From the NCBI GenBank assembly GCA_951406725.2, contig OX597829.1, forward strand, positions 56,482,001 to 56,546,000: DNA of 64,000 bases. Reading direction: 5' to 3'. Under the pieces are notes generated by a model. That model worked only from the letters and a program-made list of their open reading frames with translations, was not told the DNA's origin and ran no database searches. Below are positions 10,931 to 56,667 of this stretch, in pieces. Source of the DNA: Octopus vulgaris (lineage: Eukaryota). The position numbers were made by a program, and so were the translations under genes. Each line of letters begins with the position of its first letter. Position 1 is the stretch's first letter.

Positions 10931-10939
10931 CCAGTGAAG

Positions 10940-18743: not shown

Positions 18744-18893
18744 CTTCTTTTATCTTTGTCATATCAACAATCTGGTGACATTTTCTTCCTAATTGAAATG
18801 GAAGGCTTTGGTTTTGCAACAGTGCTTGTTATGGTATTTGCTGGCCAAGTATATCTCAGAAGAAAAGAACCCAAACTTCTTCGCCCAATTAAG
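18744..18893 (+). CDS. SLC7 transporter exon, TM9-TM10
   Basis: tttcttgtag|...|gtgaga, 150 bp. LLLSLSYQQSGDIFFLIEMEGFGFATVLVMVFAGQVYLRRKEPKLLRPIK (family motif LRxxxPxxxRPIK). Confidence 0.95.
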
Positions 18894-19363
18894 GTGAGAA
18901 TATTTAACATTTAACTGTTGTTTCCATTATCAACATAATTCATTTATATTGTTAATTTTTCAGATTCCCCTTATCTGAAAATACTACACCATTATTTAAA
19001 AGAACTGCCTATTTTATAATAAGTTTCAATCATAAAATTATGAAATAATCAATTTTAAACATGTCTAAGTTTAGTCATTCAGATGTCAATGAATACTTAA
19101 TGAAAAGAAATGCACACAAAATGCATGCAATAAATGCAATTCTTTTGCTCCCACACAGCCTGTACCCATTTTATTTTGCATTCTGTGAATAATTGTGTCG
19201 TTGGTTGCAGGATGTTTACAATGAGCCTATTACTGGCTCATTAAAGGGCACTACCTTTATAGAGTTTCTGTAATGTTTGATCTATAAAACAACTTTCAGC
19301 ATACAGAACATGCATCAATCACAAAAGTTTGGTTCAATAAACATTCCCATTCATTTACATTGT

Positions 19364-19803
19364 TTTATGTCTGCTCTCATGGGTTAGACTGCTCATTATA
19401 GTCTTACTTTATGCCTGCTCTCATGGGTTAGACTGCTCATTATAGTCTTACTTTATGCCTGCTCTCATGGGTTAGACTGCTCATTATAGTCTTACTTTAT
19501 GCCTGCTCTCATGGGTTAGACTGCTCATTATAGTCTTACTTTATGCCTGCTCTCATGGGTTAGACTGCTCATTATAGTCTTACTTTATGCCTGCTCTCAT
19601 GGGTTAGACTGCTCATTATAGTCTTACTTTATGCCTGCTCTCATGGGTTAGACTGCTCATTATAGTCTTACTTTATGCCTGCTCTCATGGGTTAGACTGC
19701 TCATTATAGTCTTACTTTATGCCTGCTCTCATGGGTTAGACTGCTCATTATAGTCTTACTTTATGCCTGCTCTCATGGGTTAGACTGCTCATTATAGTCT
19801 TAT
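19364..19803. repeat. 44-bp minisatellite, 10 copies (unit 1)
   Basis: Unit TTTATGCCTGCTCTCATGGGTTAGACTGCTCATTATAGTCTTAC, head-to-tail, no spacers. Confidence 0.97.
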
Positions 19804-20832: not shown

Positions 20833-21038
20833 ATAAGATTTATGAAAAATGAACGGCATAACTGCCTGCTAAAATCTTAAGAGTTATGAAAGATGAACGA
20901 CGTAATCGCCTTGCCTGCTAAAATCCTAAGATTTATCACAAGATGAATGATGTAATTGCCCGCTAAAATCCTAAGATTTATGAAAGATGAATGATGCAAT
21001 TGCCTGCTTAAATCCTAAGATTTATGAAAGATGAATGA
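20833..21038. repeat. Degenerate ~44-bp tandem repeat, ~4.5 copies, present in every array unit
   Basis: Recurring TAAGATTTATGAAAGATGAATGATGxAATTGCCTGCTAAAATCC. Confidence 0.8.
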
Positions 21039-21114
21039 GTTGTTCCATACATTGATTTCAAGGCAAGAAATTCTTCCTCAATGTTGAATTTTGCAGTTAT
21101 TGCACATATAAATA

Positions 21115-22260
21115 TTCTTTTCTACTCTAGGCACAAGGCCCAAAATTTTTAGTAAGGGGGCCAGTCGATTAGATTGACACCAGTATGCAACTGGTAATTA
21201 ATTTATCGACCCCAAAAGGATGAAAGGCCAAGTTGACCTCGACGGAATATGAACTCAGACAGACAAAATACCTATTTCTTTACTGCCCACAAGGGGCTAC
21301 ACACAGAGGGGAGTAACAAAGACAGACAAACGGATTAAGTCGATTAAATTGACCCCAGTCGATAACTGATACTTATTTAATCGACCCCGAAAGGATGAAA
21401 GGCAAAGTCGACCTTGGCAGAATTTGAACTCAGAACGTAAAAGCAGACAAAATACCTATTTCTATTTCTTTACTATCCACAAAGGGCTAAACATAGAGGG
21501 GACAAACAAGGACAGAGAAACGGATTAAGTTGATTATATCGACCCCAGTGCATAACTGGTACTTATTTAATCAACCCTGAAAGGATGAAAGGCCAAGTTG
21601 ACCTTGGCGGAATTTGAACTCAGAACGTAATGGCAGGCAAAATACCTATTTCGGATCTTTTCGCTTTGAACTTAGAATATGTGTTTATTAATAAAAGTTT
21701 AATAACGATAATCTTTTATTCATACGAACTTCACTGATACGAAATATGTCATAAATAACAGTGACACATTGATATGACACCGCCAGAAAATGTTGACAGA
21801 CTACGGCAGAAATTGTATTCACCTCAATAGACGTCGTTGATTGGTTGAAATTGCCGAAATGCAAGAAATTAAACAACAAATAGCTTACAAACTACAGAAT
21901 TTTCTCAAGAAATCCAAGAGAAAAAGATGTTTTATGTAACACACTAGCAGTATACGAAGTTTAAAAGTGTTTAGTTAAAAAGAAATTATTTTAAAAATCT
22001 GCCGGTCAAAGTGAAAAGATCCCCTATTTCTTTACTACCCACAAGGGGCTAAACACAGAAGGGACAAACAAGGACAGACAGACAAACGGATTAAGCCGAT
22101 TATATCGACCCCAGTCGATAACTGGTACTTATTTAATCGATCCCGAAAGGATGAAAGGCAAAGTCGACCTCGGCGGAATTTGAACTCAGAACGTAGCGGC
22201 AGACGAAATACCGCTGGACATTTCGCTCGTCGTGCTAACGATTCTGCCAAGCTCGCCGCC
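21115..22260 (-). mobile_element. tRNA-like SINE with internally multimerised body (~4 blocks), interrupted by a MITE; present in every array unit
   Basis: Minus-strand head ggcggcgagcttggcagaatcgttagc...gagttcaaattcc (A/B-box-like). Repeated central block gcctttcatcctttcggggtcgat...ataagtaccag. Same family at ~2385-2812 and ~63470-63660. Confidence 0.8.
21653..22022. mobile_element. 370-bp MITE with GG...CC termini and 8-bp TSD (Merlin-like); present in every array unit
   Basis: TIRs GGATCTTTTCGCTTTGA / TCAAAGTGAAAAGATCC (1 mismatch). TSD CCTATTTC at 21645-21652 and 22023-22030. The empty site aatacctatttctttac is visible in a neighbouring SINE block. Confidence 0.85.
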
Positions 22261-22292
22261 TTATTGCCTGTATAAATATTGTCATTTGAGCA

Positions 22293-22352
22293 ATATTTGC
22301 TGACCAAGTATATCTCAGAAGAAAAGAACCCAAACTTCTTCGCCCAATTAAG
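22293..22352 (+). pseudogene. Duplicated 3' part (60 bp) of the 18744-18893 exon with intact donor; first of nine copies
   Basis: atatttgctgaccaagtatatctcagaagaaaagaacccaaacttcttcgcccaattaag|gtgaga. Other copies start at 26062, 29830, 33554, 37323, 41046, 44769, 48536, 52219. The native acceptor is absent. Confidence 0.95.
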
Positions 22353-22822
22353 GTGAGAATATTTAACATTTAACTGTTGTTTCCATTATCAACATAATTC
22401 ATTTATATTGTTAATTTTTCAGATTCCCCTTATCTGAAAATACTACACCATTATTTAAAAGAACTGCCTATTTTATAATAAGTTTCAATCATAAAATTAT
22501 GAAATAATCAATTTTAAACATGTCTAAGTTTAGTCATTCAGATGTCAATGAATACTTAATGAAAAGAAATGCACACAAAATGCATGCAATAAATGCAATT
22601 CTTTTGCTCCCACACAGCCTGTACCCATTTTATTTTGCATTCTGTGAATAATTGTGTCGTTGGTTGCAGGATGTTTACAATGAGCCTATTACTGGCTCAT
22701 TAAAGGGCACTACCTTTATAGAGTTTCTGTAATGTTTGATCTATAAAACAACTTTCAGCATACAGAACATGCATCAATCACAAAAGTTTGGTTCAATAAA
22801 CATTCCCATTCATTTACATTGT

Positions 22823-23570
22823 TTTATGTCTGCTCTCATGGGTTAGACTGCTCATTATAGTCTTACTTTATGCCTGCTCTCATGGGTTAGACTGCTCATT
22901 ATAGTCTTACTTTATGCCTGCTCTCATGGGTTAGACTGCTCATTATAGTCTTACTTTATGCCTGCTCTCATGGGTTAGACTGCTCATTATAGTCTTACTT
23001 TATGCCTGCTCTCATGGGTTAGACTGCTCATTATAGTCTTACTTTATGTCTGCTCTCATGGGTTAGACTGCTCATTATAGTCTTACTTTATGCCTGCTCT
23101 CATGGGTTAGACTGCTCATTATAGTCTTACTTTATGCCTGCTCTCATGGGTTAAACTGCTCATTATAGTCTTACTTTATGCCTGCTCTCATGGGTTAGAC
23201 TGCTCATTATAGTCTTACTTTATGCCTGCTCTCATGGGTTAGACTGCTCATTATAGTCTTACTTTATGCCTGCTCTCATGGGTTAGACTGCTCATTATAG
23301 TCTTACTTTATGCCTGCTCTCATGGGTTAGACTGCTCATTATAGTCTTACTTTATGCCTGCTCTCATGGGTTAGACTGCTCATTATAGTCTTACTTTATG
23401 CCTGCTCTCATGGGTTAGACTGCTCATTATAGTCTTACTTTATGCCTGCTCTCATGGGTTAGACTGCTCATTATAGTCTTACTTTATGCCTGCTCTCATG
23501 GGTTAGACTGCTCATTATAGTCTTACTTTATGCCTGCTCTCATGGGTTAGACTGCTCATTATAGTCTTAT
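22823..23570. repeat. 44-bp minisatellite, 17 copies (unit 2); homologous arrays in units 3-10
   Basis: Other arrays: 26593-27340 (17), 30360-31063 (16), 34083-34830 (17), 37853-38556 (16), 41576-42279 (16), 45299-46046 (17), 49066-49728 (15 +3 bp), 52749-53458 (16 +6 bp). Confidence 0.97.
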
Positions 23571-26500
23571 CCAGTCATCATTCACAGATAAACACCCTTT
23601 CACACAAGTTGGGGAGTCAAATCTTGTTTCAGTCTTTTGAGACTTAGTTTCTATGGCTGGATGTCTTTCCTATCACCAACTTTTGCAGTGCATGCATTTA
23701 TTGAGGTACCAACAATGGGGATCTTTTATATTCACAAGACAAGACTAAAGGATTTTTTCAAACCAACACTGTCTGCTTGTTTGCCGATCTCTTTGCAGGG
23801 TTTCTGGGTACATTTTATCATGGCACCAACACTAGTGAGGTTGCCTTGTGATCTGTAAGACAAAAGGATTGGCACTGCTCAATGTGGTTTCATTAAAAAA
23901 TATCTCTTTTCCTTAAAGTTATGAGGGAAAACATTGGATCTTGTGAAAGTTCCAAAAGTCCTCTCTCCACCCCATGGTTTGTAGGCATAAATTTTTTGTT
24001 TTCCTATTCATCTAATACGCATTTTTTTTTACACCCATTACACTTGATTTTGTTTTTGTTTTGATACATCTCTTATGAATCTGAAAAATTTCAACTATTC
24101 TTCACAAACATCTGATGTCACTCCTCCCCATCTTTTTCCATTCTATATATTGGCTATGTTCATTTATGTATGTGTAGACTTCTGAAACAGCAGGCAAAAA
24201 AAATATCATGCTTTCACTAGAAAACTCGATATACTTGAACTAACAGCTAAATGCCAGAAAAATAAGTTTTTCCTCATATCACTTTTATTTTACTACTTGA
24301 TCATAAGATCTATGAGAGATAAATGACATATTCATCTGCTAAAATCTTCAAAGTAATTCAATATGTTTGAAATAAGCGAGTTTATTTATTTTATCTAAGC
24401 TCGGGTTTATAAATCCTCTTATCACAAATTACAAAATAAAAAAAAGTTGATTTCAATTGGTGGAGTTATGATTTTGCCCATGTGTACACTTCACCTGACC
24501 TAGCTGACAAAAAACCTATCACATCTCACTAAAAAATTAATACGTTTGAAATAACAGCTAAATGTCTGCTTTTCCTCATATCATTTTCATTTTACGACTC
24601 ATAAGATTTATGGAAAATGAACGGCATAACTGCCTGCTAAAATCTTAAGAGTTATGAAAGATGAACGACGTAATCGCCTTGCCTGCTAAAATCCTAAGAT
24701 TTATCACAAGATGAATGATGTAATTGCCCGCTAAAATCCTAAGATTTATGAAAGATGAATGATGCAATTGCCTGCTTAAATCCTAAGATTTATGAAAGAT
24801 GAATGAGTTGTTCCATACATTGATTTCAAGGCAAGAAATTCTTCCTCAATGTTGAATTTTGCAGTTATTGCACATATAAATATTCTTTTCTACTCTAGGC
24901 ACAAGGCCCAAAATTTTTAGTTAAGGGGGCCAGTCGATTAGATTGACACCAGTATGCAACTGGTAATTAATTTATCGACCCCAAAAGGATGAAAGGCCAA
25001 GTTGACCTCGACGGAATATGAACTCAGACAGACAAAATACCTATTTCTTTACTGCCCACAAGGGGCTACACACAGAGGGGAGTAACAAAGACAGACAAAC
25101 GGATTAAGTCGATTAAATTGACCCCAGTCGATAACTGATACTTATTTAATCGACCCCGAAAGGATGAAAGGCAAAGTCGACCTTGGCAGAATTTGAACTC
25201 AGAACGTAAAAGCAGACAAAATACCTATTTCTATTTCTTTACTATCCACAAAGGGCTAAACATAGAGGGGACAAACAAGGACAGAGAAACGGATTAAGTT
25301 GATTATATCGACCCCAGTGCATAACTGGTACTTATTTAATCAACCCTGAAAGGATGAAAGGCCAAGTTGACCTTGGCGGAATTTGAACTCAGAACGTAAT
25401 GGCAGGCAAAATACCTATTTCGGATCTTTTCGCTTTGAACTTAGAATATGTGTTTATTAATAAAAGTTTAATAACGATAATCTTTTATTCATACGAACTT
25501 CACTGATACGAAATATGTCATAAATAACAGTGACACATTGATATGACACCGCCAGAAAATGTTGACAGACTACGGCAGAAATTGTATTCACCTCAATAGA
25601 CGTCGTTGATTGGTTGAAATTGCCGAAATGCAAGAAATTAAACAACAAATAGCTTACAAACTACAGAATTTTCTCAAGAAATCCAAGAGAAAAAGATGTT
25701 TTATGTAACACACTAGCAGTATACGAAGTTTAAAAGTGTTTAGTTAAAAAGAAATTATTTTAAAAATCTGCCGGTCAAAGTGAAAAGATCCCCTATTTCT
25801 TTACTACCCACAAGGGGCTAAACACAGAAGGGACAAACAAGGACAGACAGACAAACGGATTAAGCCGATTATATCGACCCCAGTCGATAACTGGTACTTA
25901 TTTAATCGATCCCGAAAGGATGAAAGGCAAAGTCGACCTCGGCGGAATTTGAACTCAGAACGTAGCGGCAGACGAAATACCGCTGGACATTTCGCTCGTC
26001 GTGCTAACGATTCTGCCAAGCTCGCCGCCTTATTGCCTGTATAAATATTGTCATTTGAGCAATATTTGCTGACCAAGTATATCTCAGAAGAAAAGAACCC
26101 AAACTTCTTCGCCCAATTAAGGTGAGAATATTTAACATTTAACTGTTGTTTCCATTATCAACATAATTCATTTATATTGTTAATTTTTCAGATTCCCCCT
26201 TATCTGAAAATACTACACCATTATTTAAAAGAACTGCCTATTTTATAATAAGTTTCAATCATAAAATTATGAAATAATCAATTTTAAACATGTCTAAGTT
26301 TAGTCATTCAGATGTCAATGAATACTTAATGAAAAGAAATGCACACAAAATGCATGCAATAAATGCAATTCTTTTGCTCCCACACAGCCTGTACCCATTT
26401 TATTTTGCATTCTGTGAATAATTGTGTCGTTGGTTGCAGGATGTTTACAATGAGCCTATTACTGGCTCATTAAAGGGCACTACCTTTATAGAGTTTCTGT

Positions 26501-29500: not shown

Positions 29501-32500
29501 AAAGTGTTTAGTTAAAAAGAAATTATTTTAAAAATCTGCCGGTCAAAGTGAAAAGATCCCCTATTTCTTTACTACCCACAAGGGGCTAAACACAGAAGGG
29601 ACAAACAAGGACAGACAGACAAACGGATTAAGCCGATTATATCGACCCCAGTCGATAACTGGTACTTATTTAATCGATCCCGAAAGGATGAAAGGCAAAG
29701 TCGACCTCGGCGGAATTTGAACTCAGAACGTAGCGGCAGACGAAATACCGCTGGACATTTCGCTCGTCGTGCTAACGATTCTGCCAAGCTCGCCGCCTTA
29801 TTGCCTGTATAAATATTGTCATTTGAGCAATATTTGCTGACCAAGTATATCTCAGAAGAAAAGAACCCAAACTTCTTCGCCCAATTAAGGTGAGAATATT
29901 TAACATTTAACTGTTGTTTCCATTATCAACATAATTCATTTATATTGTTAATTTTTCAGATTCCCCTTATCTGAAAATACTACACCATTATTTAAAAGAA
30001 CTGCCTATTTTATAATAAGTTTCAATCATAAAATTATGAAATAATCAATTTTAAACATGTCTAAGTTTAGTCATTCAGATGTCAATGAATACTTAATGAA
30101 AAGAAATGCACACAAAATGCATGCAATAAATGCAATTCTTTTGCTCCCACACAGCCTGTACCCATTTTATTTTGCATTCTGTGAATAATTGTGTCGTTGG
30201 TTGCAGGATGTTTACAATGAGCCTATTACTGGCTCATTAAAGGGCACTACCTTTATAGAGTTTCTGTAATGTTTGATCTATAAAACAACTTTCAGCATAC
30301 AGAACATGCATCAATCACAAAAGTTTGGTTCAATAAACATTCCCATTCATTTACATTGTTTTATGTCTGCTCTCATGGGTTAGACTGCTCATTATAGTCT
30401 TACTTTATGCCTGCTCTCATGGGTTAGACTGCTCATTATAGTCTTACTTTATGCCTGCTCTCATGGGTTAGACTGCTCATTATAGTCTTACTTTATGCCT
30501 GCTCTCATGGGTTAGACTGCTCATTATAGTCTTACTTTATGCCTGCTCTCATGGGTTAGACTGCTCATTATAGTCTTACTTTATGTCTGCTCTCATGGGT
30601 TAGACTGCTCATTATAGTCTTACTTTATGCCTGCTCTCATGGGTTAGACTGCTCATTATAGTCTTACTTTATGCCTGCTCTCATGGGTTAAACTGCTCAT
30701 TATAGTCTTACTTTATGCCTGCTCTCATGGGTTAGACTGCTCATTATAGTCTTACTTTATGCCTGCTCTCATGGGTTAGACTGCTCATTATAGTCTTACT
30801 TTATGCCTGCTCTCATGGGTTAGACTGCTCATTATAGTCTTACTTTATGCCTGCTCTCATGGGTTAGACTGCTCATTATAGTCTTACTTTATGCCTGCTC
30901 TCATGGGTTAGACTGCTCATTATAGTCTTACTTTATGCCTGCTCTCATGGGTTAGACTGCTCATTATAGTCTTACTTTATGCCTGCTCTCATGGGTTAGA
31001 CTGCTCATTATAGTCTTACTTTATGCCTGCTCTCATGGGTTAGACTGCTCATTATAGTCTTATCCAGTCATCATTCACAGATAAACACCCTTTCACACAA
31101 GTTGGGGAGTCAAATCTTGTTTCAGTCTTTTGAGACTTAGTTTCTATGGCTGGATGTCTTTCCTATCACCAACTTTTGCAGTGCATGCATTTATTGAGGT
31201 ACCAACAATGGGGATCTTTTATATTCACAAGACAAGACTAAAGGATTTTTTCAAACCAACACTGTCTGCTTGTTTGCCGATCTCTTTGCAGGGTTTCTGG
31301 GTACATTTTATCATGGCACCAACACTAGTGAGGTTGCCTTGTGATCTGTAAGACAAAAGGATTGGCACTGCTCAATGTGGTTTCATTAAAAAATATCTCT
31401 TTTCCTTAAAGTTATGAGGGAAAACATTGGATCTTGTGAAAGTTCCAAAAGTCCTCTCTCCACCCCATGGTTTGTAGGCATAAATTTTTTGTTTTCCTAT
31501 TCATCTAATACGCATTTTTTTTTACACCCATTACACTTGATTTTGTTTTTGTTTTGATACATCTCTTATGAATCTGAAAAATTTCAACTATTCTTCACAA
31601 ACATCTGATGTCACTCCTCCCCATCTTTTTCCATTCTATATATTGGCTATGTTCATTTATGTATGTGTAGACTTCTGAAACAGCAGGCAAAAAAAATATC
31701 ATGCTTTCACTAGAAAACTCGATATACTTGAACTAACAGCTAAATGCCAGAAAAATAAGTTTTTCCTCATATCACTTTTATTTTACTACTTGATCATAAG
31801 ATCTATGAGAGATAAATGACATATTCATCTGCTAAAATCTTCAAAGTAATTCGATATGTTTGAAATAAGCGAGTTTATTTATTTTATCTAAGCTCGGGTT
31901 TATAAATCCTCTTATCACAAATTACAAAATAAAAAAAAGTTGATTTCAATTGGTGGAGTTATGATTTTGCCCATGTGTACACTTCACCTGACCTAGCTGA
32001 CAAAAAACCTATCACATCTCACTAAAAAATTAATACGTTTGAAATAACAGCTAAATGTCTGCTTTTCCTCATATCATTTTCATTTTACGACTCATAAGAT
32101 TTATGAAAAATGAACGGCATAACTGCCTGCTAAAATCTTAAGAGTTATGAAAGATGAACGACGTAATCGCCTTGCCTGCTAAAATCCTAAGATTTATCAC
32201 AAGATGAATGATGTAATTGCCCGCTAAAATCCTAAGATTTATGAAAGATGAATGATGCAATTGCCTGCTTAAATCCTAAGATTTATGAAAGATGAATGAG
32301 TTGTTCCATACATTGATTTCAAGGCAAGAAATTCTTCCTCAATGTTGAATTTTGCAGTTATTGCACATATAAATATTCTTTTCTACTCTAGGCACAAGGC
32401 CCAAAATTTTTAGTAAGGGGGCCAGTCGATTAGATTGACACCAGTATGCAACTGGTAATTAATTTATCGACCCCAAAAGGATGAAAGGCCAAGTTGACCT

Positions 32501-35500
32501 CGACGGAATATGAACTCAGACAGACAAAATACCTATTTCTTTACTGCCCACAAGGGGCTACACACAGAGGGGAGTAACAAAGACAGACAAACGGATTAAG
32601 TCGATTAAATTGACCCCAGTCGATAACTGATACTTATTTAATCGACCCCGAAAGGATGAAAGGCAAAGTCGACCTTGGCAGAATTTGAACTCAGAACGTA
32701 AAAGCAGACAAAATACCTATTTCTATTTCTTTACTATCCACAAAGGGCTAAACATAGAGGGGACAAACAAGGACAGAGAAACGGATTAAGTTGATTATAT
32801 CGACCCCAGTGCATAACTGGTACTTATTTAATCAACCCTGAAAGGATGAAAGGCCAAGTTGACCTTGGCGGAATTTGAACTCAGAACGTAATGGCAGGCA
32901 AAATACCTATTTCGGATCTTTTCGCTTTGAACTTAGAATATGTGTTTATTAATAAAAGTTTAATAACGATAATCTTTTATTCATACGAACTTCACTGATA
33001 CGAAATATGTCATAAATAACAGTGACACATTGATATGACACCGCCAGAAAATGTTGACAGACTACGGCAGAAATTGTATTCACCTCAATAGACGTCGTTG
33101 ATTGGTTGAAATTGCCGAAATGCAAGAAATTAAACAACAAATAGCTTACAAACTACAGAATTTTCTCAAGAAATCCAAGAGAAAAAGATGTTTTATGTAA
33201 CACACTAGCAGTATACGAAGTTTAAAAGTGTTTAGTTAAAAAGAAATTATTTTAAAAATCTGCCGGTCAAAGTGAAAAGATCCCCTATTTCTTTACTACC
33301 CACAAGGGGCTAAACACAGAAGGGACAAACAAGGACAGACAGACAAACGGATTAAGCCGATTATATCGACCCCAGTCGATAACTGGTACTTATTTAATCG
33401 ATCCCGAAAGGATGAAAGGCAAAGTCGACCTCGGCGGAATTTGAACTCAGAACGTAGCGGCAGACGAAATACCGCTGGACATTTCGCTCGTCGTGCTAAC
33501 GATTCTGCCAAGCTCGCCGCCTTATTGCCTGTATAAATATTGTCATTTGAGCAATATTTGCTGACCAAGTATATCTCAGAAGAAAAGAACCCAAACTTCT
33601 TCGCCCAATTAAGGTGAGAATATTTAACATTTAACTGTTGTTTCCATTATCAACATAATTCATTTATATTGTTAATTTTTCAGATTCCCTTATCTGAAAA
33701 TACTACACCATTATTTAAAAGAACTGCCTATTTTATAATAAGTTTCAATCATAAAATTATGAAATAATCAATTTTAAACATGTCTAAGTTTAGTCATTCA
33801 GATGTCAATGAATACTTAATGAAAAGAAATGCACACAAAATGCATGCAATAAATGCAATTCTTTTGCTCCCACACAGCCTGTACCCATTTTATTTTGCAT
33901 TCTGTGAATAATTGTGTCGTTGGTTGCAGGATGTTTACAATGAGCCTATTACTGGCTCATTAAAGGGCACTACCTTTATAGAGTTTCTGTAATGTTTGAT
34001 CTATAAAACAACTTTCAGCATACAGAACATGCATCAATCACAAAAGTTTGGTTCAATAAACATTCCCATTCATTTACATTGTTTTATGTCTGCTCTCATG
34101 GGTTAGACTGCTCATTATAGTCTTACTTTATGCCTGCTCTCATGGGTTAGACTGCTCATTATAGTCTTACTTTATGCCTGCTCTCATGGGTTAGACTGCT
34201 CATTATAGTCTTACTTTATGCCTGCTCTCATGGGTTAGACTGCTCATTATAGTCTTACTTTATGCCTGCTCTCATGGGTTAGACTGCTCATTATAGTCTT
34301 ACTTTATGTCTGCTCTCATGGGTTAGACTGCTCATTATAGTCTTACTTTATGCCTGCTCTCATGGGTTAGACTGCTCATTATAGTCTTACTTTATGCCTG
34401 CTCTCATGGGTTAAACTGCTCATTATAGTCTTACTTTATGCCTGCTCTCATGGGTTAGACTGCTCATTATAGTCTTACTTTATGCCTGCTCTCATGGGTT
34501 AGACTGCTCATTATAGTCTTACTTTATGCCTGCTCTCATGGGTTAGACTGCTCATTATAGTCTTACTTTATGCCTGCTCTCATGGGTTAGACTGCTCATT
34601 ATAGTCTTACTTTATGCCTGCTCTCATGGGTTAGACTGCTCATTATAGTCTTACTTTATGCCTGCTCTCATGGGTTAGACTGCTCATTATAGTCTTACTT
34701 TATGCCTGCTCTCATGGGTTAGACTGCTCATTATAGTCTTACTTTATGCCTGCTCTCATGGGTTAGACTGCTCATTATAGTCTTACTTTATGCCTGCTCT
34801 CATGGGTTAGACTGCTCATTATAGTCTTATCCAGTCATCATTCACAGATAAACACCCTTTCACACAAGTTGGGGAGTCAAATCTTGTTTCAGTCTTTTGA
34901 GACTTAGTTTCTATGGCTGGATGTCTTTCCTATCACCAACTTTTGCAGTGCATGCATTTATTGAGGTACCAACAATGGGGATCTTTTATATTCACAAGAC
35001 AAGACTAAAGGATTTTTTCAAACCAACACTGTCTGCTTGTTTGCCGATCTCTTTGCAGGGTTTCTGGGTACATTTTATCATGGCACCAACACTAGTGAGG
35101 TTGCCTTGTGATCTGTAAGACAAAAGGATTGGCACTGCTCAATGTGGTTTCATTAAAAAATATCTCTTTTCCTTAAAGTTATGAGGGAAAACATTGGATC
35201 TTGTGAAAGTTCCAAAAGTCCTCTCTCCACCCCATGGTTTGTAGGCATAAATTTTTTGTTTTCCTATTCATCTAATACGCATTTTTTTTTACACCCATTA
35301 CACTTGATTTTGTTTTTGTTTTGATACATCTCTTATGAATCTGAAAAATTTCAACTATTCTTCACAAACATCTGATGTCACTCCTCCCCATCTTTTTCCA
35401 TTCTATATATTGGCTATGTTCATTTATGTATGTGTAGACTTCTGAAACAGCAGGCAAAAAAAATATCATGCTTTCACTAGAAAACTCGATATACTTGAAC

Positions 35501-44500: not shown

Positions 44501-47500
44501 TATTTCTTTACTACCCACAAGGGGCTAAACACAGAAGGGACAAACAAGGACAGACAGACAAACGGATTAAGCCGATTATATCGACCCCAGTCGATAACTG
44601 GTACTTATTTAATCGATCCCGAAAGGATGAAAGGCAAAGTCGACCTCGGCGGAATTTGAACTCAGAACGTAGCGGCAGACGAAATACCGCTGGACATTTC
44701 GCTCGTCGTGCTAACGATTCTGCCAAGCTCGCCGCCTTATTGCCTGTATAAATATTGTCATTTGAGCAATATTTGCTGACCAAGTATATCTCAGAAGAAA
44801 AGAACCCAAACTTCTTCGCCCAATTAAGGTGAGAATATTTAACATTTAACTGTTGTTTCCATTATCAACATAATTCATTTATATTGTTAATTTTTCAGAT
44901 TCCCCTTATCTGAAAATACTACACCATTATTTAAAAGAACTGCCTATTTTATAATAAGTTTCAATCATAAAATTATGAAATAATCAATTTTAAACATGTC
45001 TAAGTTTAGTCATTCAGATGTCAATGAATACTTAATGAAAAGAAATGCACACAAAATGCATGCAATAAATGCAATTCTTTTGCTCCCACACAGCCTGTAC
45101 CCATTTTATTTTGCATTCTGTGAATAATTGTGTCGTTGGTTGCAGGATGTTTACAATGAGCCTATTACTGGCTCATTAAAGGGCACTACCTTTATAGAGT
45201 TTCTGTAATGTTTGATCTATAAAACAACTTTCAGCATACAGAACATGCATCAATCACAAAAGTTTGGTTCAATAAACATTCCCATTCATTTACATTGTTT
45301 TATGTCTGCTCTCATGGGTTAGACTGCTCATTATAGTCTTACTTTATGCCTGCTCTCATGGGTTAGACTGCTCATTATAGTCTTACTTTATGCCTGCTCT
45401 CATGGGTTAGACTGCTCATTATAGTCTTACTTTATGCCTGCTCTCATGGGTTAGACTGCTCATTATAGTCTTACTTTATGCCTGCTCTCATGGGTTAGAC
45501 TGCTCATTATAGTCTTACTTTATGTCTGCTCTCATGGGTTAGACTGCTCATTATAGTCTTACTTTATGCCTGCTCTCATGGGTTAGACTGCTCATTATAG
45601 TCTTACTTTATGCCTGCTCTCATGGGTTAAACTGCTCATTATAGTCTTACTTTATGCCTGCTCTCATGGGTTAGACTGCTCATTATAGTCTTACTTTATG
45701 CCTGCTCTCATGGGTTAGACTGCTCATTATAGTCTTACTTTATGCCTGCTCTCATGGGTTAGACTGCTCATTATAGTCTTACTTTATGCCTGCTCTCATG
45801 GGTTAGACTGCTCATTATAGTCTTACTTTATGCCTGCTCTCATGGGTTAGACTGCTCATTATAGTCTTACTTTATGCCTGCTCTCATGGGTTAGACTGCT
45901 CATTATAGTCTTACTTTATGCCTGCTCTCATGGGTTAGACTGCTCATTATAGTCTTACTTTATGCCTGCTCTCATGGGTTAGACTGCTCATTATAGTCTT
46001 ACTTTATGCCTGCTCTCATGGGTTAGACTGCTCATTATAGTCTTATCCAGTCATCATTCACAGATAAACACCCTTTCACACAAGTTGGGGAGTCAAATCT
46101 TGTTTCAGTCTTTTGAGACTTAGTTTCTATGGCTGGATGTCTTTCCTATCACCAACTTTTGCAGTGCATGCATTTATTGAGGTACCAACAATGGGGATCT
46201 TTTATATTCACAAGACAAGACTAAAGGATTTTTCAAACCAACACTGTCTGCTTGTTTGCCGATCTCTTTGCAGGGTTTCTGGGTACATTTTATCATGGCA
46301 CCAACACTAGTGAGGTTGCCTTGTGATCTGTAAGACAAAAGGATTGGCACTGCTCAATGTGGTTTCATTAAAAAATATCTCTTTTCCTTAAAGTTATGAG
46401 GGAAAACATTGGATCTTGTGAAAGTTCCAAAAGTCCTCTCTCCACCCCATGGTTTGTAGGCATAAATTTTTTGTTTTCCTATTCATCTAATACGCATTTT
46501 TTTTTACACCCATTACACTTGATTTTGTTTTTGTTTTGATACATCTCTTATGAATCTGAAAAATTTCAACTATTCTTCACAAACATCTGATGTCACTCCT
46601 CCCCATCTTTTTCCATTCTATATATTGGCTATGTTCATTTATGTATGTGTAGACTTCTGAAACAGCAGGCAAAAAAAATATCATGCTTTCACTAGAAAAC
46701 TCGATATACTTGAACTAACAGCTAAATGCCAGAAAAATAAGTTTTTCCTCATATCACTTTTATTTTACTACTTGATCATAAGATCTATGAGAGATAAATG
46801 ACATATTCATCTGCTAAAATCTTCAAAGTAATTCGATATGTTTGAAATAAGCGAGTTTATTTATTTTATCTAAGCTCGGGTTTATAAATCCTCTTATCAC
46901 AAATTACAAAATAAAAAAAAGTTGATTTCAATTGGTGGAGTTATGATTTTGCCCATGTGTACACTTCACCTGACCTAGCTGACAAAAAACCTATCACATC
47001 TCACTAAAAAATTAATACGTTTGAAATAACAGCTAAATGTCTGCTTTTCCTCATATCATTTTCATTTTACGACTCATAAGATTTATGAAAAATGAACGGC
47101 ATAACTGCCTGCTAAAATCTTAAGAGTTATGAAAGATGAACGACGTAATCGCCTTGCCTGCTAAAATCCTAAGATTTATCACAAGATGAATGATGTAATT
47201 GCCCGCTAAAATCCTAAGATTTATGAAAGATGAATGATGCAATTGCCTGCTTAAATCCTAAGATTTATGAAAGATGAATGAGTTGTTCCATACATTGATT
47301 TCAAGGCAAGAAATTCTTCCTCAATGTTGAATTTTGCAGTTATTGCACATATAAATATTCTTTTCTACTCTAGGCACAAGGCCCAAAATTTTTAGTAAGG
47401 GGGCCAGTCGATTAGATTGACACCAGTATGCAACTGGTAATTAATTTATCGACCCCAAAAGGATGAAAGGCCAAGTTGACCTCGACGGAATATGAACTCA

Positions 47501-50500
47501 GACAGACAAAATACCTATTTCTTTACTGCCCACAAGGGGCTACACACAGAGGGGAGTAACAAAGACAGACAAACGGATTAAGTCGATTAAATTGACCCCA
47601 GTCGATAACTGATACTTATTTAATCGACCCCGAAAGGATGAAAGGCAAAGTCGACCTTGGCAGAATTTGAACTCAGAACGTAAAAGCAGACAAAATACCT
47701 ATTTCTATTTCTTTACTATCCACAAAGGGCTAAACATAGAGGGGACAAACAAGGACAGAGAAACGGATTAAGTTGATTATATCGACCCCAGTGCATAACT
47801 GGTACTTATTTAATCAACCCTGAAAGGATGAAAGGCCAAGTTGACCTTGGCGGAATTTGAACTCAGAACGTAATGGCAGGCAAAATACCTATTTCGGATC
47901 TTTTCGCTTTGAACTTAGAATATGTGTTTATTAATAAAAGTTTAATAACGATAATCTTTTATTCATACGAACTTCACTGATACGAAATATGTCATAAATA
48001 ACAGTGACACATTGATATGACACCGCCAGAAAATGTTGACAGACTACGGCAGAAATTGTATTCACCTCAATAGACGTCGTTGATTGGTTGAAATTGCCGA
48101 AATGCAAGAAATTAAACAACAAATAGCTTACAAACTACAGAATTTTCTCAAGAAATCCAAGAGAAAAAGATGTTTTATGTAACACACTAGCAGTATACGA
48201 AGTTTAAAAGTGTTTAGTTAAAAAGAAATTATTTTAAAAATCTGCCGGTCAAAGTGAAAAGATCCCCTATTTCTTTACTACCCACAAGGGGCTAAACACA
48301 GAAGGGACAAACAAGGACAGACAGACAAACGGATTAAGCCGATTATATCGACCCCAGTCGATAACTGGTACTTATTTAATCGATCCCGAAAGGATGAAAG
48401 GCAAAGTCGACCTCGGCGGAATTTGAACTCAGAACGTAGCGGCAGACGAAATACCGCTGGACATTTCGCTCGTCGTGCTAACGATTCTGCCAAGCTCGCC
48501 GCCTTATTGCCTGTATAAATATTGTCATTTGAGCAATATTTGCTGACCAAGTATATCTCAGAAGAAAAGAACCCAAACTTCTTCGCCCAATTAAGGTGAG
48601 AATATTTAACATTTAACTGTTGTTTCCATTATCAACATAATTCATTTATATTGTTAATTTTTCAGATTCCCCTTATCTGAAAATACTACACCATTATTTA
48701 AAAGAACTGCCTATTTTATAATAAGTTTCAATCATAAAATTATGAAATAATCAATTTTAAACATGTCTAAGTTTAGTCATTCAGATGTCAATGAATACTT
48801 AATGAAAAGAAATGCACACAAAATGCATGCAATAAATGCAATTCTTTTGCTCCCACACAGCCTGTACCCATTTTATTTTGCATTCTGTGAATAATTGTGT
48901 CGTTGGTTGCAGGATGTTTACAATGAGCCTATTACTGGCTCATTAAAGGGCACTACCTTTATAGAGTTTCTGTAATGTTTGATCTATAAAACAACTTTCA
49001 GCATACAGAACATGCATCAATCACAAAAGTTTGGTTCAATAAACATTCCCATTCATTTACATTGTTTTATGTCTGCTCTCATGGGTTAGACTGCTCATTA
49101 TAGTCTTACTTTATGCCTGCTCTCATGGGTTAGACTGCTCATTATAGTCTTACTTTATGCCTGCTCTCATGGGTTAGACTGCTCATTATAGTCTTACTTT
49201 ATGCCTGCTCTCATGGGTTAGACTGCTCATTATAGTCTTACTTTATGCCTGCTCTCATGGGTTAGACTGCTCATTATAGTCTTACTTTATGTCTGCTCTC
49301 ATGGGTTAGACTGCTCATTATAGTCTTACTTTATGCCTGCTCTCATGGGTTAGACTGCTCATTATAGTCTTACTTTATGCCTGCTCTCATGGGTTAAACT
49401 GCTCATTATAGTCTTACTTTATGCCTGCTCTCATGGGTTAGACTGCTCATTATAGTCTTACTTTATGCCTGCTCTCATGGGTTAGACTGCTCATTATAGT
49501 CTTACTTTATGCCTGCTCTCATGGGTTAGACTGCTCATTATAGTCTTACTTTATGCCTGCTCTCATGGGTTAGACTGCTCATTATAGTCTTACTTTATGC
49601 CTGCTCTCATGGGTTAGACTGCTCATTATAGTCTTACTTTATGCCTGCTCTCATGGGTTAGACTGCTCATTATAGTCTTACTTTATGCCTGCTCTCATGG
49701 GTTAGACTGCTCATTATTATAGTCTTATCCAGTCATCATTCACAGATAAACACCCTTTCACACAAGTTGGGGAGTCAAATCTTGTTTCAGTCTTTTGAGA
49801 CTTAGTTTCTATGGCTGGATGTCTTTCCTATCACCAACTTTTGCAGTGCATGCATTTATTGAGGTACCAACAATGGGGATCTTTTATATTCACAAGACAA
49901 GACTAAAGGATTTTTTCAAACCAACACTGTCTGCTTGTTTGCCGATCTCTTTGCAGGGTTTCTGGGTACATTTTATCATGGCACCAACACTAGTGAGGTT
50001 GCCTTGTGATCTGTAAGACAAAAGGATTGGCACTGCTCAATGTGGTTTCATTAAAAAATATCTCTTTTCCTTAAAGTTATGAGGGAAAACATTGGATCTT
50101 GTGAAAGTTCCAAAAGTCCTCTCTCCACCCCATGGTTTGTAGGCATAAATTTTTTGTTTTCCTATTCATCTAATACGCATTTTTTTTTACACCCATTACA
50201 CTTGATTTTGTTTTTGTTTTGATACATCTCTTATGAATCTGAAAAATTTCAACTATTCTTCACAAACATCTGATGTCACTCCTCCCCATCTTTTTCCATT
50301 CTATATATTGGCTATGTTCATTTATGTATGTGTAGACTTCTGAAACAGCAGGCAAAAAAAATATCATGCTTTCACTAGAAAACTCGATATACTTGAACTA
50401 ACAGCTAAATGCCAGAAAAATAAGTTTTTCCTCATATCACTTTTATTTTACTACTTGATCATAAGATCTATGAGAGATAAATGACATATTCATCTGCTAA

Positions 50501-53500
50501 AATCTTCAAAGTAATTCGATATGTTTGAAATAAGCGAGTTTATTTATTTTATCTAAGCTCGGGTTTATAAATCCTCTTATCACAAATTACAAAATAAAAA
50601 AAAGTTGATTTCAATTGGTGGAGTTATGATTTTGCCCATGTGTACACTTCACCTGACCTAGCTGACAAAAAACCTATCACATCTCACTAAAAAATTAATA
50701 CGTTTGAAATAACAGCTAAATGTCTGCTTTTCCTCATATCATTTTCATTTTACGACTCATAAGATTTATGGAAAATGAACGGCATAACTGCCTGCTAAAA
50801 TCTTAAGAGTTATGAAAGATGAACGACGTAATCGCCTTGCCTGCTAAAATCCTAAGATTTATCACAAGATGAATGATGTAATTGCCCGCTAAAATCCTAA
50901 GATTTATGAAAGATGAATGATGCAATTGCCTGCTTAAATCCTAAGATTTATGAAAGATGAATGAGTTGTTCCATACATTGATTTCAAGGCAAGAAATTCT
51001 TCCTCAATGTTGAATTTTGCAGTTATTGCACATATAAATATTCTTTTCTACTCTAGGCACAAGGCCCAAAATTTTTAGTAAGGGGGCCAGTCGATTAGAT
51101 TGACACCAGTATGCAACTGGTAATTAATTTATCGACCCCAAAAGGATGAAAGGCCAAGTTGACCTCGACGGAATATGAACTCAGACAGACAAAATACCTA
51201 TTTCTTTACTGCCCACAAGGGGCTACACACAGAGGGGAGTAACAAAGACAGACAAACGGATTAAGTCGATTAAATTGACCCCAGTCGATAACTGATACTT
51301 ATTTAATCGACCCCGAAAGGATGAAAGGCAAAGTCGACCTTGGCAGAATTTGAACTCAGAACGTAAAAGCAGACAAAATACCTATTTCTATTTCTTTACT
51401 ATCCACAAAGGGCTAAACATAGAGGGGACAAACAAGGACAGAGAAACGGATTAAGTTGATTATATCGACCCCAGTGCATAACTGGTACTTATTTAATCAA
51501 CCCTGAAAGGATGAAAGGCCAAGTTGACCTTGGCGGAATTTGAACTCAGAACGTAATGGCAGGCAAAATACCTATTTCGGATCTTTTCGCTTTGAACTTA
51601 GAATATGTGTTTATTAATAAAAGTTTAATAACGATAATCTTTTATTCATACGAACTTCACTGATACGAAATATGTCATAAATAACAGTGACACATTGATA
51701 TGACACCGCCAGAAAATGTTGACAGACTACGGCAGAAATTGTATTCACCTCAATAGACGTCGTTGATTGGTTGAAATTGCCGAAATGCAAGAAATTAAAC
51801 AACAAATAGCTTACAAACTACAGAATTTTCTCAAGAAATCCAAGAGAAAAAGATGTTTTATGTAACACACTAGCAGTATACGAAGTTTAAAAGTGTTTAG
51901 TTAAAAAGAAATTATTTTAAAAATCTGCCGGTCAAAGTGAAAAGATCCCCTATTTCTTTACTACCCACAAGGGGCTAAACACAGAAGGGACAAACAAGGA
52001 CAGACAGACAAACGGATTAAGCCGATTATATCGACCCCAGTCGATAACTGGTACTTATTTAATCGATCCCGAAAGGATGAAAGGCAAAGTCGACCACGGC
52101 GGAATTTGAACTCAGAACGTAGCGGCAGACGAAATACCGCTGGACATTTCGCTCGTCGTGCTAACGATTCTGCCAAGCTCGCCGCCTTATTGCCTGTATA
52201 AATATTGTCATTTGAGCAATATTTGCTGACCAAGTATATCTCAGAAGAAAAGAACCCAAACTTCTTCGCCCAATTAAGGTGAGAATATTTAACATTTAAC
52301 TGTTGTTTCCATTATCAACATAATTCATTTATATTGTTAATTTTTCAGATTCCCCTTATCTGAAAATACTACACCATTATTTAAAAGAACTGCCTATTTT
52401 ATAATAAGTTTCAATCATAAAATTATGAAATAATCAATTTTAAACATGTCTAAGTTTAGTCATTCAGATGTCAATGAATACTTAATGAAAAGAAATGCAC
52501 ACAAAATGCATGCAATAAATGCAATTCTTTTGCTCCCACACAGCCTGTACCCATTTTATTTTGCATTCTGTGAATAATTGTGTCGTTGGTTGCAGGATGT
52601 TTACAATGAGCCTATTACTGGCTCATTAAAGGGCACTACCTTTATAGAGTTTCTGTAATGTTTGATCTATAAAACAACTTTCAGCATACAGAACATGCAT
52701 CAATCACAAAAGTTTGGTTCAATAAACATTCCCATTCATTTACATTGTTTTATGTCTGCTCTCATGGGTTAGACTGCTCATTATAGTCTTACTTTATGCC
52801 TGCTCTCATGGGTTAGACTGCTCATTATAGTCTTACTTTATGCCTGCTCTCATGGGTTAGACTGCTCATTATAGTCTTACTTTATGCCTGCTCTCATGGG
52901 TTAGACTGCTCATTATAGTCTTACTTTATCTTTATGCCTGCTCTCATGGGTTAGACTGCTCATTATAGTCTTACTTTATGCCTGCTCTCATGGGTTAGAC
53001 TGCTCATTATAGTCTTACTTTATGCCTGCTCTCATGGGTTAAACTGCTCATTATAGTCTTACTTTATGCCTGCTCTCATGGGTTAGACTGCTCATTATAG
53101 TCTTACTTTATGCCTGCTCTCATGGGTTAGACTGCTCATTATAGTCTTACTTTATGCCTGCTCTCATGGGTTAGACTGCTCATTATAGTCTTACTTTATG
53201 CCTGCTCTCATGGGTTAGACTGCTCATTATAGTCTTACTTTATGCCTGCTCTCATGGGTTAGACTGCTCATTATAGTCTTACTTTATGCCTGCTCTCATG
53301 GGTTAGACTGCTCATTATAGTCTTACTTTATGCCTGCTCTCATGGGTTAGACTGCTCATTATAGTCTTACTTTATGCCTGCTCTCATGGGTTAGACTGCT
53401 CATTATAGTCTTACTTTATGCCTGCTCTCATGGGTTAGACTGCTCATTATAGTCTTATCCAGTCATCATTCACAGATAAACACCCTTTCACACAAGTTGG

Positions 53501-55917
53501 GGAGTCAAATCTTGTTTCAGTCTTTTGAGACTTAGTTTCTATGGCTGGATGTCTTTCCTATCACCAACTTTTGCAGTGCATGCATTTATTGAGGTACCAA
53601 CAATGGGGATCTTTTATATTCACAAGACAAGACTAAAGGATTTTTTCAAACCAACACTGTCTGCTTGTTTGCCGATCTCTTTGCAGGGTTTCTGGGTACA
53701 TTTTATCATGGCACCAACACTAGTGAGGTTGCCTTGTGATCTGTAAGACAAAAGGATTGGCACTGCTCAATGTGGTTTCATTAAAAAATATCTCTTTTCC
53801 TTAAAGTTATGAGGGAAAACATTGGATCTTGTGAAAGTTCCAAAAGTCCTCTCTCCACCCCATGGTTTGTAGGCATAAATTTTTTGTTTTCCTATTCATC
53901 TAATACGCATTTTTTTTTACACCCATTACACTTGATTTTGTTTTTGTTTTGATACATCTCTTATGAATCTGAAAAATTTCAACTTTTCTTCACAAACATC
54001 TGATGTCACTCCTCCCCATCTTTTTCCATTCTATATATTGGCTATGTTCATTTATGTATGTGTAGACTTCTGAAACAGCAGGCAAAAAAAATATCATGCT
54101 TTCACTAGAAAACTCGATATACTTGAACTAACAGCTAAATGCCAGAAAAATAAGTTTTTCCTCATATCACTTTTATTTTACTACTTGATCATAAGATCTA
54201 TGAGAGATAAATGACATATTCATCTGCTAAAATCTTCAAAGTAATTCGATATGTTTGAAATAAGCGAGTTTATTTATTTTATCTAAGCTCGGGTTTATAA
54301 ATCCTCTTATCACAAATTACAAAATAAAAAAAAGTTGATTTCAATTGGTGGAGTTATGATTTTGCCCATGTGTACACTTCACCTGACCTAGCTGACAAAA
54401 AACCTATCACATCTCACTAAAAAATTAATACGTTTGAAATAACAGCTAAATGTCTGCTTTTCCTCATATCATTTTCATTTTACGACTCATAAGATTTATG
54501 AAAAATGAACGGCATAACTGCCTGCTAAAATCTTAAGAGTTATGAAAGATGAACGACGTAATCGCCTTGCCTGCTAAAATCCTAAGATTTATCACAAGAT
54601 GAATGATGTAATTGCCCGCTAAAATCCTAAGATTTATGAAAGATGAATGATGCAATTGCCTGCTTAAATCCTAAGATTTATGAAAGATGAATGAGTTGTT
54701 CCATACATTGATTTCAAGGCAAGAAATTCTTCCTCAATGTTGAATTTTGCAGTTATTGCACATATAAATATTCTTTTCTACTCTAGGCACAAGGCCCAAA
54801 ATTTTTAGTAAGGGGGCCAGTCGATTAGATTGACACCAGTATGCAACTGGTAATTAATTTATCAACCCCAAAAGGATGAAAGGCCAAGTTGACCTCGACG
54901 GAATATGAACTCAGACAGACAAAATACCTATTTCTTTACTGCCCACAAGGGGCTACACACAGAGGGGAGTAACAAAGACAGACAAACGGATTAAGTCGAT
55001 TAAATTGACCCCAGTCGATAACTGATACTTATTTAATCGACCCCGAAAGGATGAAAGGCAAAGTCGACCTTGGCAGAATTTGAACTCAGAACGTAAAAGC
55101 AGACAAAATACCTATTTCTATTTCTTTACTATCCACAAAGGGCTAAACATAGAGGGGACAAACAAGGACAGAGAAACGGATTAAGTCGATTATATCGACC
55201 CCAGTGCATAACTGGTACTTATTTAATCAACCCCGAAAGGATGAAAGGCCAAGTTGACCTTGGCGGAATTTGAACTCAGAATGTAATGGCAGGCAAAATA
55301 CCTATTTCGGATCTTTTCGCTTTGAACTTAGAATATGTGTTTATTAATAAAAGTTTAATAACGATAATCTTTTATTCATACGAACGTAACTGATATGAAA
55401 TATGTCATAAATAACATTGACACATTGATATGACACCGCCAGAAAATGTTGACAGACTACGGCAGAAATTGTATTCACCTCAATAGACGTCGTTGATTGG
55501 TTGAAATTGCCGAAATGCAAGAAATTAAACAACAAATAGCTTACAAACTACAGAATTTTCTCAAGAAATCCAAGAGAAAAAGATGTTTTATGTAACACAC
55601 TAGCAGTATACGAAGTTTAAAAGTGTTTAGTTAAAAAGAAATTATTTTAAAAATCTGCCGGTCAAAGTGAAAAGATCCCCTATTTCTTTACTACCCACAA
55701 GGGGCTAAACACAGAAGGGACAAACAAGGACAGACAGACAAACGGATTAAGCCGATTATATCGACCCCAGTCGATAACTGGTACTTATTTAATCGATCCC
55801 GAAAGGATGAAAGGCAAAGTCGACCTCGGCGGAATTTGAACTCAGAACGTAGCGGCAGACGAAATACCGCTGGACATTTCGCTCGTCGTGCTAACGATTC
55901 TGCCAAGCTCGCCGCCT

Positions 55918-56170
55918 TATTGCCTGTATAAATATTGTCATTTGAGCAGTATTAGACAGATCAGTTGTCTCATGAATAGCTAAGGAATACAATACAAATT
56001 CTGCTGAAACAGATTTTAGAGAATTTTTAATGTCATCAACGATATCTTTAATACGATCAGAAACAGTTGCTTTTGACAAGCTAATATTGCCAAACAAATT
56101 TTTTCTGATCATATAATATAATGATACATTCTTTCACGAATTCACCATCGCTATGTGGTTTGATTTTTCG
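55918..56170 (-). pseudogene. hAT (Charlie/SPIN/GTF2IRD2-like) transposase fragment
   Basis: KPHSDGEFVKECI, then a frameshift, then FGNISLSKATVSDRIKDIVDDI...YSLAIHETTDLSNTAQMTIFI. This resembles the hAT motifs SLSxxTVxxRI and FSLALDESTDxSxTAQLxIF. Confidence 0.85.
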
Positions 56171-56360
56171 TCGGTCTCCCTTCTCCACACAAGTATTGAC
56201 AAGCGAGTGGGTAGGGAAGGGCGATGGGAGACGAAAGAAATTCCGGTTGACCTTCTTGACACCGACTGATAGCAAAAATGTGACACCCCTTTCGAAAAAC
56301 GCTATTTTTTTGTGTAATATTTTTGGTTGTTTTGTTATACCTCGCAAAGTTGTCAACGAA

Positions 56361-56628
56361 CTGTCATCTGGATCTGCTTTGTTCGTTAATTTCCGTAAAA
56401 AAATTTTATTCATTTACTTTTGTTTTATAATGAAAGAGAGGAGAAAGTGAAAGATGTATGAAAGTGTGTGTGTAAAAGAGAGAGAAAGAGAGAGAGAGTG
56501 TGTCACTTTACAGGAAAACACATACGTTCTCTCTCTCTCTCTCACTCTCTCTCCCTCTCTCTCTCTCACGCACATGTACATACAAAAAAGATGTATGCAT
56601 ATGTATACATGACAACCCCCCTCCCTTC

Positions 56629-56667
<39 letters not shown>

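Follow-up and report, generated by a model that had tools for sequence, protein, structure and literature searches.

The Pea-comb allele of chicken carries about 30 tandem copies, versus 2, of a ~3.2-kb stretch of SOX5 intron 1 that contains transposon fragments (as described in PMC2685452). In this work, we examined a related arrangement in Octopus vulgaris, namely, a head-to-tail array of 10 units at 18834-55953 (+) of the window, i.e., the whole 64,000-nt stretch analyzed (assembly GCA_951406725.2, contig OX597829.1, forward-strand positions 56,482,001 to 56,546,000). The array begins inside a coding exon of a gene assigned to the SLC7 transporter family and continues into the following intron, such that each of its nine internal copies opens with the last 60 nt of that exon and its 5′ splice site (hereafter, decoy half-exons and decoy donors). 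The array is probably a tolerated, near-neutral intronic copy number variant (CNV) whose nine donor half-exons are skipped by the spliceosome, with the transporter made normally or at a slightly lower dose.

Like Pea-comb, the octopus array is an intronic tandem repeat with transposon fragments in a unit of similar size and a copy number that may vary, and the coding sequence of the host gene is intact (PMC2685452). In contrast, that source describes the Pea-comb repeat as GC-rich, with a CpG island and with conserved enhancers nearby; its phenotype is proven, and the description includes no exon piece or donor. The octopus unit has a GC content of 36% and a CpG observed/expected ratio (o/e) of 0.49, and a relative carries it in single copy. 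Pea-comb is the closest known case, to which the donor half-exons would add a new twist.

Macrosatellites are defined by head-to-tail units of several kb (PMC5687341), and the octopus array has this form, its 10 units measuring 3.5-3.8 kb. The definition also calls for copy number variation between individuals; on this point, depth ratios of 4.5-5.8 (X2) and 5.7 (X3) stand beside 10 assembled units, and a single-copy state was seen only under another species label. Human macrosatellites and large intragenic arrays (D4Z4, DXZ4, and RNU2; LPA, NBPF, and DMBT; the intronic arrays in Table 2C of Warburton et al.) likewise consist of multi-kb head-to-tail units at one locus, and RNU2 also has a smaller variable repeat nested in each unit (PMC5687341; PMC2588610). 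The human arrays as presented in these sources hold whole genes, whole exons, or no exon, whereas the octopus unit takes in no more of an exon than its last 60 nt with the donor. Moreover, the human macrosatellite set spans hundreds of kb and is CpG-rich, but the octopus array is short (37 kb), AT-rich (GC 0.36, CpG o/e 0.49), and species-restricted.

Tandem duplications with breakpoints in exons are known from human genes as well. A duplicated donor-only half-exon with its 5′ breakpoint in an exon is seen in BRCA2 EX19dup, which starts in exon 18 and for which microhomology routes are discussed (PMC6752314). That duplication, as reported there, has two copies, contains whole exons, and causes a frameshift, whereas the octopus unit contains no whole exon and was amplified further. 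The decoy exons of SF3B1 and OGT likewise supply extra donors in a long intron and introduce a premature termination codon on inclusion (PMC6097662). However, they are described as having both splice sites and U2AF binding, with deep conservation for SF3B1; the octopus copies have weak acceptors and the array is young. In principle, a duplicated AG/GT can also be removed without protein change, as in intron birth by AGGT duplication (PMC3265369) and at Drosophila ratchet points (PMC8605326). In the octopus, by contrast with AGGT-derived introns, an existing intron absorbs the copies and no new intron need arise, and the acceptor half is AAG behind a C-rich tract. Among the listed papers of an open-access library, none described this locus or a multi-kb array built from donor half-exons.

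Structure and origin of the array

Self-BLAST and unit splitting placed the unit starts at 18834, 22293, 26062, 29830, 33554, 37323, 41046, 44769, 48536, and 52219, with the array ending at 55953. The units are 3459-3769 bp long, each comprising ~3.0 kb plus a nested 44-bp variable number tandem repeat (VNTR) that accounts for nearly all of the length spread, and are 98.5-99.7% identical to each other in self-alignment, far above chance. An anchor taken from the exon sequence was found 10 times, with the same spacing of 3459-3769 nt. The first unit begins 60 nt before the 3′ end of coding exon 18744-18893 (+). The nine decoy half-exons were located by the unit split at 22293-22352 (with its donor at 22353), 26062-26121, 29830-29889, 33554-33613, 37323-37382, 41046-41105, 44769-44828, 48536-48595, and 52219-52278 (all +). 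All nine end in AAG/GTGAGA, the same as the native donor, and are identical to one another across 60+6 nt. The intron is 44,828 nt long with the array and 11,167-11,443 nt when reduced to one unit (~fourfold shorter). A first-pass annotation of this DNA had described an array starting 60 bp before the exon end with nine decoy donors and an intron extended from ~11 kb to 44.8 kb, and both descriptions were borne out.

The host gene has five coding exons in the window (all +), which have AG/GT borders, join in one open frame, and all map to P0003, a full-length protein of 475 amino acids that is identical on record for O. vulgaris and O. sinensis; the exons flanking the array are intact and in frame, as previously annotated. 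Two of these exons (3878-4001 and 11561-11664) were identified from the exon joins and the match to P0003, and the exon directly upstream of the split one (16056-16152) from the match to P0003 and from RNA contigs. The native 150-nt exon at 18744-18893 encodes P0003 residues 342-391 in phase 0-0, has a strong T-rich TAG acceptor and the donor AAG/GTGAGA, and is spliced to both neighbors in RNA contigs. The next coding exon (63722-63899), which is the penultimate one or an earlier one, has a strong acceptor that is joined to 18893 in RNA contigs, and matches P0003 at 100%, with 25 P0003 residues beyond it. We take the split exon to be that of TM10, as in the first-pass annotation, following the helix numbering of LAT1.

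P0003 contains the APC-type permease domain PF13520 (201 bits), and the solved structures closest to it are those of SLC7 light chains (consensus xCT, 6.7e-128; LAT1, 1.2e-124; also y+LAT and LAT2). The scores for the human LAT1, xCT, and y+LAT subtypes are close to each other, and "LAT1-like" is an automatic name. These matches identify the host as a predicted SLC7 heteromeric light chain, for which the family is secure, and by family the product would be an amino-acid transporter. Among the best 120 of 1326 matches, mollusc homologues are 60-88% alike.

Both outer breakpoints of the array read GTATT, the left one (18834-18838, +) lying inside the exon and the right one at 55949-55953 (+). 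At all nine junctions between units, which are identical (the first at 22263-22315, +), this short identity is present once, as ATATT, and a second G>A lies 10 nt further; the two G>A changes relative to the exon (22293 and 22303 in unit 2) fall within 11 nt. The change at 22303 creates CTGAC, a branch-point-like sequence, and the resulting A at unit position 11 is a marker base of the decoy copies, 49 nt before the donor. A 5-nt identity shared by the two outer ends and retained once at the junction is the pattern of a microhomology-mediated tandem duplication. One such duplication, followed by amplification of the junction-bearing unit, is the simplest account, and the expansion likely occurred by unequal crossing-over. 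Judged from its sequence, the unit is host DNA and not an element.

Presence and copy number of the array in public sequencing runs

We examined 8 of 24 listed sequencing runs, all as assembled contigs, of which one may be the source of the window itself. The status as RNA is secure only where a contig joins exons (X6 and X19), and contig depth is not true copy number. Evidence for the array comes from four runs (X1, X2, X3, and X10), representing at most four samples and three studies. In X1, a contig has a loose end before 18835 whose printed letters are the junction sequence, and an X10 contig has 64 letters unaligned at this position, their sequence not being printed. In both X2 and X3, two deep DNA runs, the flank contig stops at 18874 and a unit contig starts at 18845, a break expected because a second path differing at 18844 forces it with 31-letter words. 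The unit is also deeper than its flanks, at 81.8 versus 18 and 14.1 in X2 (ratio 4.5-5.8) and 328.3 versus 57.7 and 57.9 in X3 (ratio 5.7). The array therefore exists in more than one sample. That it might be a pure assembly artefact, a possibility that the first-pass annotation had asked to be checked, has a negligible probability. In its favor, the units are near-identical, and the data are contigs with no read spanning the whole array; this reading is refuted by the X1 junction letters, the branch and raised depth in X2 and X3, and the loose end in X10, by which contigs from more than one sample carry the junction.

The share of words found in a run is a poor separator of carriers; a single-copy allele would keep ~0.93, and X10 has 0.83 despite its junction loose end. 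The junction contig of X1 has a depth of 4.6, and the neighboring dispersed repeat reaches only ~20-170 in this run, compared with thousands to tens of thousands in X10, whose unit depth is similar. X1 looks unlike plain genomic DNA, and the junction may be transcribed, the library type being a guess; its contigs leave the upstream exons uncovered, a gap that we take as proof of nothing.

X13, a run under another species label (organism B), has one contig at 18605-19360 that spans the unit start at flat depth, with one difference and no junction branch, and the unit is therefore single-copy in this run. X13 is near-identical to the window and was flagged as its possible source, yet it has no branch; at 18975 it differs from the window, whereas the organism A contigs that cover this base match. 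X12 yielded no placed contig, which can be an effect of filtering. Because X13 is single-copy, the array is young. It represents a tandem amplification of sequence native to the host gene, namely, the end of one exon and part of the following intron, with a recent expansion of an inner unit.

The first-pass annotation had counted ten copies and expected a read depth of ~10×. The count stands for the assembly, but the depth in X2 and X3 is 4.5-5.8× that of the flanks. These ratios correspond to 9-11.6 copies per diploid (11.3-11.4 in X3 alone), and therefore either 10+1 or ~5-6 per chromosome would fit. Outside the VNTR, units 3, 4, 5, 7, and 8 have 0 substitutions between them, and relative to units 2-9, unit 10 differs by 9-11 substitutions and unit 1 by 3-5. 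At alignment column 1060, the base common to units 1 and 10 differs from that of units 2-9. Eight substitutions private to unit 10 form a patch at 54864-55417 (+), clustered in 555 of 3026 columns (P~5e-5) with a local divergence of 1.4%. Five of the eight are CpG transitions in both directions (read by eye), and the changes are therefore real variants and not read errors.

Diverged edge units around a uniform core are the expected remainder of unequal crossing-over, and the same pattern may also reflect a second haplotype mixed into the edge units. In this view, the array is real but its assembled form is inexact: each chromosome carries ~5-6 copies, or the animal is a 10+1 heterozygote and its single-copy allele was mixed into the two edge units; we give this somewhat less than an even chance, and it is compatible with the other readings discussed below. 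The depth below 10×, the base shared by units 1 and 10, and the different VNTR allele of unit 1 all point in this direction. The divergence of the unit 10 patch is also close to the heterozygosity of 1.22% reported for O. vulgaris in the part of PMC10700109 consulted. X2 and X3 share one-base deletions relative to the window at 16195 and 16608 in the flank, which are likely consensus errors, and single-base indels between units may be the same. On the other hand, the X3 estimate agrees well with 10+1, diverged edges are equally left by unequal crossing-over, the CpG transitions are real variants, and contig depth is an imperfect guide to copy number.

Splice sites and polyadenylation signals in the repeated unit

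In RNA contigs of X6 and X19, which are from two studies, 16152 is followed directly by 18744 and 18893 by 63722, at a depth of ~325-330, and intronic contigs have depths of 7.6 and 3.3. Native splicing thus accounts for the main assembled form in both spliced-RNA runs, and organism A expresses the gene with its native splicing. Neither run has a decoy-spliced contig or an A at 18844, which we do not count as absence since contigs drop rare forms.

Each decoy donor is identical to the native donor, which is itself used in RNA, and carries 59 nt of native purine-rich exon context. The annotation had noted an in-frame TGA two codons before the unit start and AGs that would give exons of 62, 44, 34, 31, or 26 nt, none a multiple of 3, and these features are as stated. 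The list omitted one case, the AG of the decoy's own AAG/GT, which gives a 0-nt exon and keeps the frame. With any of the five short inclusions, translation would stop 156-179 nt upstream of the 3′ end of exon 63722-63899. If the 50-55-nt rule of nonsense-mediated decay (NMD) also holds in octopus, it would target such stops. In the model derived from these features, weak AGs would pair with the copied donors to form 26-62-nt poison exons, or decoy complexes would cause intron retention, in either case scaled by copy number. The nine exact donors in their exon context, the stops well before the last junction, and the CTGAC created 15 nt before the sole YAG (34-nt exon) are in its favor, and decoy exons are reported to act in introns >1 kb (in PMC6097662, as far as consulted).

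The acceptors do not fit this model. The real acceptors of the gene are all YAG with 9-15 T at -24 to -5 (5/5), whereas none of the seven AGs before the decoy donor (0, 26, 31, 34, 44, 62, and 101 nt) has both YAG and a T-rich tract, by a crude T-count (YAG plus at least 9 T of 20) calibrated on those five sites. The sole YAG, a CAG, has 7 T of 20, a value equaled or exceeded at 39% of 1383 background AGs, and CTRAY is expected by chance every ~295 nt. Furthermore, the main tested decoys (SF3B1) are described as deeply conserved (PMC6097662), and the array is absent from organism B, in which no junction branch was found (one run, X13). The native join also prevails in both RNA runs. We consider the poison-exon model quite unlikely: its anatomy and NMD arithmetic hold, and its proposed use of the donors to tune output has so far found no support in the acceptors or the RNA contigs. 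It is unproven yet not refuted, as the contigs drop rare forms and come from RNA with NMD active and from animals that may lack the array.

The 0-nt option raises a further scenario, in which the decoys act as accidental ratchet points, with the native donor spliced to the AG of a decoy AAG/GT, the donor regenerated, and the array removed stepwise and silently. The AG/GT juxtaposition is present at all nine decoys (AAG/GTGAGA) with the frame kept, and the AG has 14/20 pyrimidines upstream, which places it among the top 10% of background AGs. For duplicated AGGT sites, splicing at 6-16% is reported from human cells (PMC3265369). However, this AG has A at -3 and a C-rich tract with 5 T of 20, unlike the five real acceptors. 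Fly ratchet points are characterized as ultraconserved and dependent on a cryptic exon with a downstream donor (PMC8605326), and here the next GTRAG is ~1.5 kb on. Beyond the AG/GT itself, we found no strong acceptor, conservation, or short cryptic recursive-splicing exon, and this scenario appears very unlikely. More generally, the unamplified intron has three AG/GTRAG sites, which are absent from mRNA on record, and the array raises their number to 12.

A different candidate within the unit was overlooked in the first-pass annotation. An acceptor-like site at 18940-18964 (+), 70 nt after the donor, is present in every unit (22423 in unit 2) and has 13 T of 20 followed by CAG, on par with the real acceptors; splicing into it would append IPLI and a stop. 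Two AATAAA hexamers follow at 19129 and 19336 (19129-19341, +), i.e., +236 and +443 from the donor. Each unit has four AATAAA, two of which are >2 kb from the copied donor, and the intron has 47 with the array versus 11 without the extra units. The acceptor lies only 70 nt from the native donor in unit 1, whereas amplification puts nine such cassettes, those of units 2-10, at normal intron distance from it. We regard this cassette as a better candidate for a dose effect than poison exons.

These signals could form a serial trap, in which the cassette acceptor and the AATAAA hexamers end a small share of transcripts at each unit, yielding tails of IPLI-stop or VRIFNI-stop that lack the last two predicted helices, and full-length output falls with copy number. 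At an assumed stop rate of ~2% per unit, the nine additional units would cost ~19% (an illustration only). An exon-into-intron contig of X6 (18867-19342) stops 1 nt after the AATAAA at 19336-19341, which is a weak hint of an early 3′ end. AATAAA near donors is reported as counter-selected in 17 eukaryotes (PMC5499120). Nevertheless, the X6 contig reads across the 70-nt stretch without a splice (0 gaps) and could derive from pre-mRNA or DNA, and its depth (7.6 versus 324.7 for spliced contigs) is a poor measure of level. Among the best 120 of 1326 matches, many of them nameless, no octopus-named protein other than P0003 was found. In addition, U1 at real or cryptic donors is reported to suppress such poly(A) signals over ~500-1000 nt (in the same source), and the copied donors may therefore protect rather than poison, with the U1 site just upstream of each cassette tending to suppress it. 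We judge the serial trap unlikely, and the broader idea that array length acts as a copy-number dial, grading transporter amount through early termination or poison splicing, is only slightly less doubtful. Separately, X19 has a 151-nt intronic contig (18963-19113) starting at the G of the acceptor-like CAG, which is either a single duplicated read or a trace of acceptor use.

For the favored reading of a tolerated array, we propose that one microhomology-mediated duplication seeded the ~3.7-kb unit and that unequal crossing-over then expanded it. Exon definition would leave the donor-only half-exons unused for want of good acceptors, and the native donor would keep pairing with the acceptor at 63722, which is strong. 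In human decoy exons, both splice sites proved necessary when tested (PMC6097662). Each copied donor would bind U1 and may shield the two AATAAA within 450 nt, such that any cost would be a modest loss of dose. Near-neutrality is likely on the evidence of sequence and contigs, and several points weigh against it. The RNA of X6 and X19 may come from animals without the array, and in 10+1 heterozygotes the single-copy allele could supply all of the spliced mRNA seen. Rare isoforms are invisible in contigs, and the acceptor test is a crude T-count based on five real sites. Each unit also adds a good acceptor-like site and four AATAAA, two of them beyond the U1 reach of ~500-1000 nt given in the consulted part of PMC5499120. 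Finally, the junction occurs in several samples and the allele is not private, a state that either drift or selection could produce.

If the array is neutral, it offers a clear case of a gene that withstands nine exact duplicates of its donor and an intron grown fourfold, and the locus calls for care in CNV and RNA mapping in octopus. The marker base 49 nt before the decoy donors and the existing single-copy state make an allele-specific RNA test easy, and such RNA could show whether a mollusc ignores donor-only half-exons. If copy number instead sets transporter dose, this would be a new route of macrosatellite action, via RNA processing and not chromatin, and arrays of different length would form an allelic series provided by nature, in which exon definition and U1 protection could be studied in a mollusc.

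Repeats in and around the array

The 44-bp VNTR has 10 copies in unit 1 (19364-19802, +), without the marker variants of units 2-10, and 17 copies in unit 2 (22823-23569, +), with the shared variants. Units 2-10 have 15-17 copies and the marker variants in common, one of the two being garbled in unit 10. The 44-bp unit holds a short inverted pair (AGACT...AGTCT) and shares eight letters, on the minus strand, with the right-breakpoint sequence, probably by chance. An older, diverged 44-bp repeat of 4.5 copies occurs at 20834-21035 and its counterparts in each unit.

The 3′ third of the unit contains a cluster of a dispersed repeat (24870-26035 in unit 2), 70-84% like copies at 2373-2816, 59705-59908, and 63477-63619, which we take to be of the short interspersed nuclear element (SINE) type. 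A 190-bp doublet of this SINE-like repeat is found at 21272-21652 and counterparts, and the unit as a whole is composed of nested repeats of three ages. An Rfam scan of the unit gave no family (best match E=0.97), no stop-free stretch in it exceeds 116 codons, and no Helitron-like ends were seen by eye at the unit borders. We considered and rejected an array of a mobile element or retrozyme, given the lack of an Rfam match near threshold and of an element open reading frame, the host exon and intron at the unit start, and the single-copy state in X13.

Directly 3′ of the array, the segment at 55954-58100 is AT-rich and CpG-undepleted (o/e 1.02), possibly a young insertion or an unmethylated region. 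Decayed copies resembling long interspersed nuclear elements (LINE-like, labeled by eye) lie at ~5595-8250 (minus strand), ~17270-18600, and 10927-11474 and are 75-78% alike within the window; the repeat at 17270-18600 is very deep in all DNA runs. A 63-bp tandem repeat of 6.4 copies lies at 4186-4596, inside a GC-rich dispersed repeat.

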